Virus record (IMG/VR): IMGVR_UViG_3300027956_000008
Span: 1 to 62,186 of that record
Origin: a virus
Lineage: Duplodnaviria > Caudoviricetes
Length of the DNA: 62,186 nucleotides
Reading direction: 5' to 3' (one strand)
The notes beneath the pieces were generated by a model. The model saw only the letters and a list, made by a program, of their open reading frames with translations. It did not search any database and had not been told where the DNA came from. Every line of letters starts with the position of its first letter. Positions within the stretch are counted from its first letter, which is position 1. The position numbers were made by a program, and so were the translations under genes. This document shows positions 1 through 62,186 of this stretch, in pieces.

Positions 1-104
1 CCTGACCCTGACCGTGACCCTGACCGTGACCATGACCCTGACCGTGACCCTGACCATGACCGTGACCATGACCATGACCATGACCGTGACCCTGACCCTG
101 ACCG
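1..104. repeat. Tandem hexamer array CC[C/G/A]TGA (minus strand TCA-[G/C/T]GG), left part
   Basis: 16 complete units plus partial units read directly; only one position per unit varies. The same array is at the other window end. Confidence 0.98.
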
Positions 105-137
105 ATCAAGACCAACTCTTAAAGCTGAAATATTCAT
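1..137 (-). CDS. 5' part of a Ser-(Gly/Arg/Trp) dipeptide-repeat peptide, MNISALRVGLDR-SGSGSRSWSWSWSRSWSG...; runs off the window edge
   Basis: ATG at 137-135 overlaps the TGA of the upstream gene (ATGA). GGAG RBS at 147-144. The frame is open to position 1. Not in the ORF track. Confidence 0.85.
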   Translation of the reverse strand, partial: MNISALRVGLDRSGSGSRSWSWSWSRSWSGSRSGSWSRSGSRSGS

Positions 138-493
138 TTAAGACTCCGTTGAATTTTAGTAATTTCAACAGCATCAATCACGCAACCACGATTAATAATT
201 ACTCTTCCACTTGGGAAAGGTTCAACTTCATTGAATTCTGCTTTTTTAATTGCTTCACTAAAGCGTCCTGTATCTGGAATCCAAGCCGCTTCTTCAAGAA
301 CAAGTTCTTTGTCTGTTGCTGCGACTAGAATACCTGTATCAATCATTGTGACTGTACGGATTAGATACACTTTACCAATAATCCAAGGGGCAACAATATT
401 GTCTTGGCAAATAATAGGAGCCAAAATGTTTTGCTTAATAGAATCTTCACGAACATACTTTATATCATCAATCATTATGGTTTCGGGTTTCAT
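134..493 (-). CDS. Sm/LSm-like fold protein (resembles the phage DUF6948-type family)
   Basis: IGKVYLIRTVTMIDTGILVAATDKELVLEEA resembles Sm1 and GRVIINRGCVIDAVEI resembles Sm2. AAAGG RBS; ATGA coupling at both ends. Confidence 0.65.
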   Translation of the reverse strand: MKPETIMIDDIKYVREDSIKQNILAPIICQDNIVAPWIIGKVYLIRTVTMIDTGILVAATDKELVLEEAAWIPDTGRFSEAIKKAEFNEVEPFPSGRVIINRGCVIDAVEITKIQRSLK

Positions 494-1044
494 ATATCAA
501 CCTTTCGTTTTTGTTGTGATTCTCTCCGTGCCAATGACCATGGTTTGCCTTTCATGGCCAGCGAAATATTATTTTTATGTGCCTCTGTACGTATTGGCTT
601 TTTTCTCCCTTTGTTTGCAATTGAGTTTTTTTGTCGATGCTCTAATGATTGCTCTTTATTGCGTAAATTGTCCTTAAATGCTTCTGTTCGTTTACGACCC
701 TTTGCATATTGGTTATTTTTGTTGGCGTTACTTATCTTCCTTTTATGATCTTCAGATAGGACACGCCCACCCCTTCCTTCTCCACCATCGCATACATTTG
801 CTAATGGAAATCCTAAATTCCTCAATAAACATATTAGTTTAATTTCTATTGCAAACGAATGTTCTTCATCTATGCATTCAATTGTTTCTATCCCAATATT
901 TTCTTTGCCATATTTATTTACGACAAATCTATGATGCCGATTACGACCATTCCAAAAATCTTTAGTTCTTTTCATTGAACCTTTCCCAACATAAAAAGGA
1001 ATCCCATTAGGTTTATAATGTATATAAACATAAAATTGTTTCAT
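490..1044 (-). CDS. GIY-YIG homing endonuclease with NUMOD3-like repeats
   Basis: FYVYIHYKPNGIPFYVGKG...R and AIEIKLI...LANVCDGGEG; C-terminal SEDHKRKIS / SLEHRQKNS / TEAHKNNIS repeats. Probable start is MKQFYVY at 1044. Confidence 0.9.
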   Translation of the reverse strand: MKQFYVYIHYKPNGIPFYVGKGSMKRTKDFWNGRNRHHRFVVNKYGKENIGIETIECIDEEHSFAIEIKLICLLRNLGFPLANVCDGGEGRGGRVLSEDHKRKISNANKNNQYAKGRKRTEAFKDNLRNKEQSLEHRQKNSIANKGRKKPIRTEAHKNNISLAMKGKPWSLARRESQQKRKVDI

Positions 1045-1145
1045 TGCATAAGTTCCCATTTGTATGTTTTGCATCTTGGGCATTGGACGGGTTTTTTTAC
1101 CCTAGCAATCTAGACATGGTTACATTTTTTACATTTACAATTCAT
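1041..1145 (-). pseudogene. Zinc-ribbon microprotein with in-frame TAG: MNCKCKKCNHV*IARVKKPVQCPRCKTYKWELMQ
   Basis: GGAGG RBS, CxxC...CPxC, TAG at 1112-1110; the terminal TGA overlaps the GIY-YIG ATG. Confidence 0.75.
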
Positions 1146-1146
1146 A

Positions 1147-1201
1147 GTGTTTTCCTCCAAATTAGATGTTTACATAATATTATATTAAGGAAGAAAAACA
1201 C
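1147..1201 (-). promoter_or_regulatory. RBS-sequestering hairpin with a TATAAT in its loop
   Basis: Minus-strand GTGTTTTTCTTCC (1201-1189) pairs with GGAGGAAAACAC (1158-1147); TATAAT at 1184-1179. Confidence 0.55.
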
Positions 1202-1208
1202 CAAATCA

Positions 1209-1241
1209 TTATACCCACATCATAGTTTCTGGCTTGTTCAT
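1209..1241 (-). pseudogene. Orphaned original N-terminus of the Sm-like gene (MNKPETMMWV*)
   Basis: AAGGA RBS, then AAG CCA GAA ACT ATG ATG versus AAA CCC GAA ACC ATA ATG at the start of 134..493. Confidence 0.7.
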
Positions 1242-1322
1242 TTTATTTTCCTTTTGAGTTAGTTGTTTAAAAAACCGGCTAGACATTGTTAAGAGGTATG
1301 GACGGTTTGTTGTCTTTATCTT

Positions 1323-1973
1323 TTAGTTAAACGGCAAATCTTCAACAGATGGTTCGCTATTCTGTGTTACGCTTGAATTTGGAACTCCACTAAAATAAGC
1401 CATACCTTCATTAGAGGTCATAACTTTCTTCTTTTCAAAAGGCCAAAGCTTGTTAAGCTTCTCTTCATTGCCTAAATCAGTTGATAGATCAAAGGTTACT
1501 AAGTCATTAACCCTGTCAGCAGTCGGCATACCTTTAGGTAATTGCATAACCGATTGAACATTGTTGTAGAACTTCTTACCGTCTTTACTCGGTGTCTTAG
1601 TGACATTCACCAAACAGCACTTATCTAGGATAAGATTCAAGTCAAAGGACTTCAATTCATCGGGTGTAAAGGGCTTACCTCTCCAAGCAACCAACATCTT
1701 ATGAAGGTTACTTTTCTCATTGATACTCGGTGTCCCTGTCCAACTCACAACAAACGGCTTACCGTCTTCCATAAGTTCACTACCAAGTTCAAAGGTAACT
1801 TGAATCTCGTGCTTAGTGACTTCTGCCCCTGTTTCTTTGTCTCGGTAAGGCATAACATGAGTACCCATATCAACGATACGAATACAACGACCTACATAAG
1901 CACCACCTTCGCACCTCTGATAATTCTTTTCTTCACCGCTTGTTCCACTGGACTTCCCGCCGTCTACAATCAT
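1323..1973 (-). CDS. Phage replication/ssDNA-binding-type protein (NGO0469-like family)
   Basis: GAYVGRCIRIVDMGTH...VTFEL...SINEKSNLHKML.AWRGKPF motif; acidic SSB-like tail EDLPFN; GAGG RBS before ATG 1973. Confidence 0.7.
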   Translation of the reverse strand: MIVDGGKSSGTSGEEKNYQRCEGGAYVGRCIRIVDMGTHVMPYRDKETGAEVTKHEIQVTFELGSELMEDGKPFVVSWTGTPSINEKSNLHKMLVAWRGKPFTPDELKSFDLNLILDKCCLVNVTKTPSKDGKKFYNNVQSVMQLPKGMPTADRVNDLVTFDLSTDLGNEEKLNKLWPFEKKKVMTSNEGMAYFSGVPNSSVTQNSEPSVEDLPFN

Positions 1974-2425
1974 ATGTTTTCCTCGCAAGCTATGACCTCT
2001 GGATTTCGAGAGATCGGTCTATGGTTCGGCATTACTAACGTCCCATTACTATAAGTGAGACTAACGATGCCATTGTGTTTAATGATGTGATCTAAGTAGT
2101 TCTTGATCGTGCTTTTATGTCTTAAGTAAGTTGTGTAACCGTATAGAGTTTCTTGAGCAACGCCATCTGGAAGAGTTTTGAGTATTGCTTGAAGGTGATT
2201 TATTTTAGCAGATTCTAGCTTTATGTCAAACCAATTTCGAAAATAAACCTTTGTTTTTGCGAAGCTATTCCAATTAATATCACACGGTAGTTCTGATAAA
2301 ATAAACTCAATGTTTTCTTCAAGGTTTTGTTTCAATTCCTTTATCTTTGAAAGGTTGTAAATAATTACAGAATTGTCCAAATTCTGAGAAGTAGCTTGCT
2401 TCCCAATGTCCGTCCCTATCAGCAT
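1970..2425 (-). CDS. Hypothetical protein (true start probably downstream of the ORF start)
   Basis: ORF track; stop overlaps the next start; its 5' part overlaps 2319..2510. Confidence 0.55.
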   Translation of the reverse strand: MLIGTDIGKQATSQNLDNSVIIYNLSKIKELKQNLEENIEFILSELPCDINWNSFAKTKVYFRNWFDIKLESAKINHLQAILKTLPDGVAQETLYGYTTYLRHKSTIKNYLDHIIKHNGIVSLTYSNGTLVMPNHRPISRNPEVIACEENI

Positions 2426-62040: not shown

Positions 62041-62186
62041 TTATGACCCTGACCGTGACCCTGACCCTGACCCTGACCATGACCCTGACCGTGACCCTGA
62101 CCATGACCATGACCGTGACCCTGACCCTGACCCTGACCGTGACCCTGACCCTGACCGTGACCATGACCCTGACCCTGACCCTAACC
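62041..62186 (-). CDS. 3' part of the Ser-(Gly/Arg/Trp) repeat peptide (...SGSGSRSGS*)
   Basis: The array ends exactly in TCA TAA (62046-62041), in the Ser-X frame. Confidence 0.8.
   Translation of the reverse strand, partial: LGSGSGSWSRSGSGSRSGSGSGSRSWSWSGSRSGSWSGSGSGSRSGS
62044..62186. repeat. Tandem hexamer array CC[C/G/A]TGA, right part
   Basis: 23 units, one of them CCCTAA; same orientation as the array at position 1. Confidence 0.98.

Follow-up and report, generated by a model that had tools for sequence, protein, structure and literature searches.

A GIY-YIG homing endonuclease cassette near the start of a phage gene, and a probable second start for the gene it interrupts

An endonuclease gene within the first codons of a phage gene

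Near one end of the IMG/VR virus record IMGVR_UViG_3300027956_000008 (62,186 bases, linear, about 80% complete by CheckV; the whole record is called the window below), the gene of a free-standing GIY-YIG/NUMOD3 homing endonuclease stands between a ten-codon stub and the gene of a 119-amino-acid (aa) protein whose first codons the stub repeats. The endonuclease cassette was inserted in the 5' end of that gene, after codon 8, and the gene is now probably read from a second start, adjoining the end of the endonuclease gene. Within the first 2.4 kb every gene lies on the minus strand; in the direction of transcription they come in the order replication initiator, stub open reading frame (ORF), zinc-ribbon-like mini-ORF, endonuclease gene, 119-aa gene. 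The parts of the locus, in the same direction, are as follows.

1242..1256, minus strand: original ribosome-binding region of the interrupted gene, A-rich, with AAAAGGA (read directly)
1209..1241, minus strand: dead-end stub ORF of 10 codons, MNKPETMMWV, with ATG at 1241..1239 and stop TAA at 1211..1209
1146..1217, minus strand: left part of the cassette, non-coding and AT-rich, 72 nucleotides (nt) (from GC content and the reading-frame map)
1041..1145, minus strand: broken zinc-ribbon-like mini-ORF, CxxC ... CPxC, with an in-frame TAG at 1112..1110 (from translation)
490..1044, minus strand: free-standing GIY-YIG/NUMOD3 homing endonuclease, 184 aa, starting MKQFYVYIH, intact (Pfam, phrog and profile matches)
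473..493, minus strand: apparent replacement gene start, an ATG and six codons homologous to stub codons 3-8 (from sequence comparison)
134..493, minus strand: the apparently interrupted and rescued gene, 119 aa (reading frame intact from the downstream ATG)

After its ATG the stub reads AAC AAG CCA GAA ACT ATG ATG (to 1218) and then runs into TGG GTA TAA. The part at 1241..1218 is the original start codon and seven further codons of the gene. Homology to uninterrupted alleles ends after 1218, which marks the left junction, and the cassette extends over 1217..494 (minus strand, 724 bp). The ribosome-binding region at 1242..1256 now serves only the stub. At the other end, the last codons of the endonuclease gene pass through a Shine-Dalgarno-like AAAGG, 7 nt before the downstream ATG, and its stop TGA (492..490) overlaps that ATG (493..491) as ATGA. 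From there the gene continues AAA CCC GAA ACC ATA ATG (490..473), ATT GAT GAT, that is, MKPETIMIDD and onward. An initial annotation, made from the letters of the window, had proposed that this second start rescues the gene. The 119-aa frame, unbroken from the downstream ATG, agrees with that proposal, and translation would then begin at the ATG at 493.

The two starts resemble each other over six codons and are distinguished by AAG/AAA, CCA/CCC, ACT/ACC and ATG/ATA. Each of these four changes affects the third base of its codon; the last replaces M by I, while the other three are synonymous. The stub also has a codon 2 (AAC, Asn) that the downstream copy lacks, a point on which the initial annotation is silent. 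Direct reading bears out the initial annotation here (four third-position changes in six codons, three of them synonymous), and its coordinates, codons, counts and translations for the stub, the endonuclease stop, the ATGA and the downstream start are all correct. In the 62,186 bases a degenerate pattern for K-P-E-T-x-M has just two matches, at 1235..1218 and at 490..473, where 0.01 are expected; none of 100 shuffles reached two.

Relatives without the cassette

What the gene looks like elsewhere decides which state is the older. Loci of the 119-aa family came from four scans: viral contigs (10), viral contigs queried with an alignment (79 kept of 149 relatives), metagenome contigs (24) and genome contigs (9). 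After removal of duplicates about 70 distinct family genes remained, and each is one continuous frame from its own start to the conserved core. A tblastn search with the endonuclease found no match at E <= 1 in 113 of the family loci and none in 9 more (0 of 122). The locus is therefore polymorphic, the cassette being present in the window and absent from the roughly 70 others. Relatives retaining both a mini-ORF and a second start, which would speak against an insertion, were looked for, and a single start was found, e.g., in L002 (MKPETMMIDEVKYVRED), L033 (MSKPETMMIDDVKYVRED) and L058 (MSAPETMMIDS), whose N-termini are of the form that the initial annotation had expected of an empty site. 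The cassette-free relatives continue with IDD or IDE after the second Met, at the point where the stub turns to other sequence, and one family protein, P0149, begins MNKP, as does the stub. Furthermore, an alignment with cassette-free L002, L033 and L056 places the stub and its ribosome-binding site, column by column, opposite the true starts of those uninterrupted genes, the region 1242..1256 matching the Shine-Dalgarno regions in front of them.

Since the gene is continuous in relatives that have no cassette, the cassette is an insertion and the stub the original start. By this comparison of sequences, the interrupted form is the derived state. The statement of the initial annotation that the cassette interrupts a gene continuous elsewhere is thus borne out.

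The same relatives supply most of the codons that distinguish the two starts. Natural uninterrupted alleles carry AAA (L002, L033, L056), ACC (L033) and ATA (L056); only CCC is private to the window. The ETIM form and the form lacking codon 2 are common natural variants among the family proteins. Among the 119 family members listed, codon 2 is absent in 15 and there is an extra residue in about 20 (a count from a looser pattern with 22 matches, 2 of which are plainly other N-terminal types). Here the initial annotation went further than the data. It had taken the changes as recoding that destroys the cleavage site, but AAA, ACC, ATA, ETIM and the loss of codon 2 are all found in nature, and differences that are mostly natural polymorphisms do not argue for selection of the four changes to that end. 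Rather, because both copies still encode the conserved peptide, each appears to have evolved as a working start in a different genome. Most simply, the downstream copy would be a foreign allele that arrived with the cassette during the repair of a double-strand break.

Some family members have peculiarities of their own. P0128, a close member (82% identity) on a 660-bp contig, has an unrelated N-terminal extension of 26 residues, joined at TETITIDD; the joint coincides with the point at which the window's gene is interrupted. Possibly the spot was rearranged once more; alternatively, the extension is an artefact of gene calling. On one viral contig (L098) there are two tandem copies of the gene, at 96-500 and 880-1446, with a repeat ORF between them. 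The member at 3860-4249 of L010 has an internal tandem duplication of 20 residues in its N-terminal region (SDDLTLGQVRELAEQFSQPS, twice).

The endonuclease and its link to the site

The endonuclease matches Pfam NUMOD3 (E 2.1e-6, 28 bits, cut-off 20.4), as do 4 of 11 relatives, and phrog_314, "homing endonuclease" (E 9.1e-13). A profile made from it and 10 relatives matches the GIY-YIG domain of UvrC (E 0.0021). The GIY-YIG family PF01541 itself gives no match to the window's protein at E <= 0.1; two of the 11 aligned family members match it, the best at E 3.3e-5. Residues 5-20 are YVYIHYKPNGIPFYVG, with the motif YVY...YVG. Aligned with 10 relatives, the endonuclease shares Y18, G20 and E67 with all of them and Y5, V6, Y7, R26 and N83 with nearly all. 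We take the conserved Arg, Glu and Asn to have the catalytic roles of those residues in I-TevI. The gene is present in a single copy in the record.

A collection of 5.8 billion proteins holds 290 relatives at E <= 1e-10, only two of them close: P0003, the closest full-length relative (189 aa, 54% identity over 98% of the query), and P0004, a fragment of 144 aa with 67% identity. They are encoded on short contigs of 1444 bp (P0003, from Logan) and 978 bp (P0004, from JGI). P0003 begins MSKPETRIFCSYLHCKPDG: in place of the MKQ of other relatives, MSKPET is fused directly to the region of the GIY motif. Among the listed members of the target family, MSKPET is the natural N-terminus found most often. 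KPET occurs within the first 15 residues of just one of the 118 endonuclease relatives examined, P0003. This N-terminus ties the nuclease lineage to the target site independently of the window. P0003, long diverged from the window's copy, thus appears likewise to lie in the first codons of the target gene and to use the gene's start for its own translation.

The left junctions of the two are 6 bp apart, after codon 6 in P0003 and after codon 8 in the window. They differ in architecture: in the window a spacer of 170 nt containing a broken ORF follows the stub, whereas in P0003 the fusion is direct and in frame. The simplest reading is of two separate joining events near one break site.

Association with a downstream start is a wider habit of the family. 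In 12 of 52 nuclease-family loci, from 6 distinct contexts, the endonuclease stop overlaps the start of the next gene by 4 nt. Such recurring overlaps indicate that genes of this family are commonly followed at once by a start codon, whose ribosome-binding site lies within the end of their reading frame. Scans of viral contigs with the endonuclease, and with its alignment to P0003 and P0004, brought up relatives of at most 45-48% identity, and the Sm-like gene (as the 119-aa gene will be called, for reasons given below) stood in none of the 63 loci. A screen for duplicated starts of the downstream gene beside other endonuclease relatives gave two weak matches, in L160 and L186, of 5 of 8 residues each, where chance would give about 1.2 by a rough estimate; they are not counted here. 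In L160 (about 1950 and 3046), a short ORF upstream of the endonuclease, MAHTVSTSPPEQN..., weakly resembles the start of the overlapping gene, MNSPFEQN... (5 of 8 residues, 13 of 18 bases). It is possibly a second case of a duplicated start, at a level of resemblance that the screen yields by chance.

One branch of the family has surroundings of a different kind. Around relatives of 38-45% identity (L013-L017, L020, L022-L029) the flanks are conserved, GC-rich and structured-looking. A group I intron (RF00028, 3380-3659, 90 bits) lies 250 nt downstream of the endonuclease gene in L017, and a tRNA gene (1834-1906) directly upstream of it in L014. This branch may be associated with introns or tRNA genes.

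How the second start may have arisen

The course of events that we consider likely begins with the nuclease, or a close relative of it in a co-infecting phage, breaking a cassette-free allele within the first 20-25 bp or so of its coding sequence. Toward the gene body, repair would use as template a donor whose endonuclease gene immediately precedes the start of the gene, and the ribosome-binding site, ATG and first codons of the donor would thereby come in on the right. On the other side the ends would be joined close to the break or at it, and the recipient would keep its ribosome-binding site and eight codons on the left. Differences confined to third positions would then reflect divergence between two functional alleles, those of donor and recipient. 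Afterward, further homing could use the stub and the gene body as its two homology arms. For intron homing in T4, a review documents cases of one-sided homology in which an illegitimate joint forms at microhomology (PMC2988022). In the present family upstream neighbors differ between relatives, so homology on the left side would often be short.

Several observations weigh against this account. The contig scans turned up neither a near-identical sibling without the cassette nor a donor genome. The closest relative, L002, is 84% identical at the protein level and has a different upstream gene, an unrelated ORF of 191 aa in the place of the window's replication initiator. A search of GenBank phages for DNA similar to positions 100-2000 of the window found only MW202573, which matches in the Sm-like gene itself, and no relative of the cassette; a scan of viral contigs with the replication initiator, aimed at a sibling with an empty site, found no relative. 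Relatives are too diverged for a co-conversion tract to show: codon-wise identity of the gene to L002, L033, L034 and L058 is about 60-85%, too low to define one, and the first 19 aligned codons are nearer to L033 (51 of 57 bases) than to L002 (44 of 57). The arrangement is known from a single instance at the DNA level. There is no clear microhomology at the left junction. And while the GC fraction is 0.285-0.295 in segments covering 1001-1300, as against 0.35-0.46 in most flanking segments, the window has equally low stretches elsewhere, e.g., 0.295 at 2201-2400.

Might the two starts be explained otherwise? That the resemblance is accidental, or the locus a chimera of metagenome assembly, is the least credible of the alternatives. 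The record is indeed a metagenome assembly, one that breaks in a repeat. But chance should have produced 0.01 matches, the stub agrees with the homologues down to its ribosome-binding site, and the exact matches between the two copies are too short for an assembler to be misled by them. Only one metagenome run, probably the source, holds the stretch, and in its Logan assembly an identical stretch lies in one 30.7-kb piece (the same data, hence not independent evidence); a single contig spans 130-2600 without joints or variants, which makes a cassette-free variant in the sample neither more nor less likely, since contigs drop rare variants. It is only slightly less improbable that the cassette is a self-splicing group I intron or some other spliced element, with the stub as exon 1. 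Many endonuclease relatives adjoin structured RNA, as in L017 and L014, and one, P0071, is named "group I intron endonuclease" by its source. Nevertheless, the cassette lacks an intron signature. A permissive Rfam search of positions 1-2544, the same search that found RF00028 in L017, gave nothing at E <= 1, and the predicted fold of the 221 nt before the endonuclease gene is no more stable than those of shuffled sequences (z -0.73). The endonuclease stop and the downstream ATG have not one nucleotide between them, which leaves no room for the 3' half of a ribozyme, and a redundant in-frame start with a Shine-Dalgarno-like sequence of its own would be pointless in an intron. On insertion without splicing, then, the initial annotation holds.

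A duplication made in place, through a target-site duplication or a slip of replication or repair at insertion, with the copies diverging later, would account for direct repeats that flank the insert exactly. It is nonetheless improbable. The copies differ at 4 of 18 positions and by a 3-bp indel, yet the endonuclease, the unselected stub and the stub's ribosome-binding site are all intact; and all differences are at third positions, although one copy would have been free of selection. No transposase or terminal inverted repeats were found, the inverted pairs of the cassette being short and at chance level. GIY-YIG enzymes leave overhangs of 2 nt and are not known to generate duplications of some 20-40 bp. 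A less unlikely possibility, though still a doubtful one, is that the replacement start evolved as an integral part of the element, its codons recoded against cleavage and against recombination with the stub; the mobile unit would then be the endonuclease gene, a ribosome-binding site, an ATG and about seven codons. Since the right junction keeps an almost complete target, something must protect it, and differences in sequence are what self-immunity would need. Both known invaded alleles have codon 2 (MNKPET in the stub, MSKPET in P0003), while the rescuing copy, MKPET, does without it, so that immunity of the right junction is a reasonable supposition, with n = 2. Two endonucleases only 54% identical are both attached to the site, which suggests a long-lived association, and there is a precedent in the phage element MobA, where a region encoded by the element is homologous to the displaced host segment and has the nick site inside it (bioRxiv 10.1101/2022.08.31.505936). 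Set against this, natural alleles show three of the four substitutions, and the absence of codon 2, as ordinary polymorphisms, the contrast between allele classes again has n = 2, the two known left junctions differ in architecture, and the same right junction occurs in no second DNA instance. Arrival of a foreign allele with the cassette explains the same features without recoding and is the account preferred here.

Comparison with known systems

The usual view is that a homing endonuclease gene lasts within a coding sequence only under the shelter of an intron or intein, or where the gene is split and its products gain new protein tails. The present locus would illustrate a cheaper route, insertion a few codons into a gene with a spare start brought along. 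It would also be a natural example of the outcome expected from one-sided, partly illegitimate repair of a break, and its uninterrupted alleles and two junctions form a clean pair of substrates for mapping the specificity of a GIY-YIG enzyme.

Classical fungal cases of GIY-YIG duplication involve 3' ends fused in frame. The initial annotation had pointed to fungal mitochondrial GIY-YIG elements with duplicated ends of the host gene as a precedent, which is indeed in print: work on fungal mitochondrial genomes describes, as in the window, a nuclease of this family beside a duplicated end of the host gene, with a pseudogene fragment and an intact gene, albeit in eukaryotic organelle genomes and not in phage (PMC7487136).

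The closest parallel in phage is MobA, which splits a topoisomerase gene of the T4 type into genes 39 and 60 (bioRxiv 10.1101/2022.08.31.505936); the insertion of MobE in nrdA of phage Aeh1, mentioned there too, is similar (also PMC10448857). In both MobA and the window a free-standing phage endonuclease gene lies inside a coding sequence and is not part of an intron or an intein; translation of the downstream part has a new start, which the element supplies; and the element includes sequence homologous to the host at the place of the cut (here 493..473, compared with 1241..1218). MobA avoids cleaving itself by having an altered site, a further likeness if, as we infer, both junctions of the window are immune too. 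The differences begin with the nuclease, which is HNH (a nickase) in MobA and GIY-YIG here. With MobA, each half remains a functional protein and gains a new tail, the host has lost 55-75 nt, and the site is blocked by a bypass cassette of 50 nt. Here, in contrast, the cut would be so near the start that the upstream half is a throw-away stub of 10 codons. The host segment is kept, the whole protein would be restored from the duplicated start, and there is no bypass, no tail and no coding gap in the 119-aa ORF.

The intronless homing of the Seg and Mob endonucleases of T-even phages is similar in that an endonuclease gene lies between or beside other genes. When the genome without the endonuclease is broken, repair draws on the genome that has it, and flanking markers are transferred along; where homology is one-sided, junctions form at microhomology and the element may enter new sites (PMC2988022). 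Unlike the window, T4 has its endonuclease genes normally in intergenic positions with uninterrupted neighbors, and a duplicated start that rescues a gene is not described in the portion of the review consulted here. A literature search found no phage endonuclease insertion rescued by a duplicated 5' start of a gene, though the supplementary tables of two of the sources (PMC7487136 and the MobA preprint) might hold one. The arrangement is a simple variation on a trick known from other homing elements.

The interrupted gene and its N-terminal module

The 119-aa protein belongs to a large unannotated family of phage proteins: it has 388 homologues at E <= 1e-15 and no match in Pfam, PHROG or NCBIfam. 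An AlphaFold model (18 sequences) has a pLDDT of 74.4 overall, above 90 over much of residues 41-70 and 91-110 and below 50 at residues 1-3 and 12-32. The model predicts a beta-barrel of the Sm/LSm type at residues 27-113 or so; a conserved N-terminal module lies before it at residues 1-22. The top 20 rows of a VIA-align search consist of Sm/LSm-type domains and of complexes, spliceosomal and other, in which such domains occur; the best, 3jcm_h, has Z 8.8 (just above the tool's background of 7-8), with an rmsd of 2.9 over 69 residues. Foldseek likewise places archaeal and eukaryotic Sm proteins at the top, with TM scores on the target of about 0.7 and a best E of 3.9e-3, none reaching 1e-3. 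Comparison of the family profile with PDB sequences gave nothing credible (best E 0.73). The label Sm-like, which the initial annotation had applied, therefore holds at the level of the predicted fold. A widespread, unannotated Sm-like phage protein, encoded near a replication initiator, is in this way brought to notice.

A further suggestion of the initial annotation, that the Sm-like gene is so conserved and valuable as to serve as a target of homing, fares less well. The first 22 residues or so (MKPETIMIDD.KYVREDSIK) recur, in phage replication regions, on proteins of otherwise unalignable sequence. P0242 has 20 of 22 residues identical in the N-terminal module, followed by a DUF6948 domain that does not align with the Sm-like protein. 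A protein of L056 (1532-1840) begins KPETIMIDDIKY and goes on with sequence unaligned by BLASTP, having no alignment with the Sm-like protein beyond residue 27. A short 5' segment highly conserved across different genes makes a good target for homing and a likely boundary for recombination. The evidence, drawn from such alignments, points to a conserved 5' module of about 66 nt as the probable target, rather than the whole Sm-like gene.

One may go further and suppose, tentatively and against the odds, that the nuclease lineage has specialized on a portable 5' module and, by repeated homing with co-conversion, spreads and homogenizes it across unrelated genes. The module would consist of a ribosome-binding site and about 22 codons (M-x-KPET-x-M-IDD-x-KYVREDS), occupying the same position in phage replication modules and heading the Sm-like protein, the DUF6948 protein P0242 and the L056 type, none of them mutually alignable beyond it. 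The resident copy of the module would serve as the left homology arm of the element (and, in P0003, as its own translation start as well), and the element would carry a resistant allele of the module as its right arm, which would also rescue the gene. If this were true, endonuclease-driven gene conversion would be linked directly to mosaic boundaries in phage genomes, and the occurrence of a short N-terminal peptide on otherwise unalignable proteins would be explained.

Neighboring genes and other features

Two further genes flank the locus.

1323..1988, minus strand: replication initiation protein, NGO0469 family (NCBIfam NF046043, E 1.5e-45, 154.9 bits, cut-off 75)
1..137, minus strand: hexanucleotide-repeat ORF, MNISALRVGLDRSGSGS..., whose start overlaps the stop of the Sm-like gene as ATGA

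The initiator also matches phrog_862 and phrog_6599, and its likely start is the ATG at 1973. An initiator of the NGO0469 family upstream places the locus in a replication module. The spacer between it and the stub is 81 nt long and ends in the AAAAGGA ribosome-binding site. A scan of 100-2100 for promoters and terminators gave 4 promoter-like sites, compared with 6.5 in shuffled sequences, and nothing informative.

The zinc-ribbon-like mini-ORF within the cassette has a sub-threshold Pfam match to Zn_ribbon_PF0610 (E 0.0018, 18.4 bits, cut-off 26), and its TGA overlaps the ATG of the endonuclease gene as ATGA. In the left part of the cassette a local stem pairs with the GGAGG that precedes this ORF, within a fold that is not significant overall (the z of -0.73 given above). 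Recoding of TAG was considered as an explanation of the in-frame stop and rejected: TAG ends 11 of 39 long frames, and the window has no tRNA genes. The mini-ORF is probably a decayed passenger, or else the remnant of an N-terminal or regulatory ORF that once belonged to the element.

A hexanucleotide array, (GGTCAN)n, with at least 40 units, occupies both ends of the record (1-104 and 62044-62186), evidently the point where the assembly broke. The minus-strand ORF starting at 137, which the array encodes, is a dipeptide repeat, MNISALRVGLDRSGSGSRSWS.... A repeat ORF downstream of the Sm-like gene is found also in L002, L035, L037, L038 and L056, and in the same place relatives have a different unit, L035, L037 and L038 with GR repeats and L056 with GD/GY or PA/TA frames. 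The repeat might function as a protein, or else at the level of DNA, as an element such as iterons beside the replication initiator.

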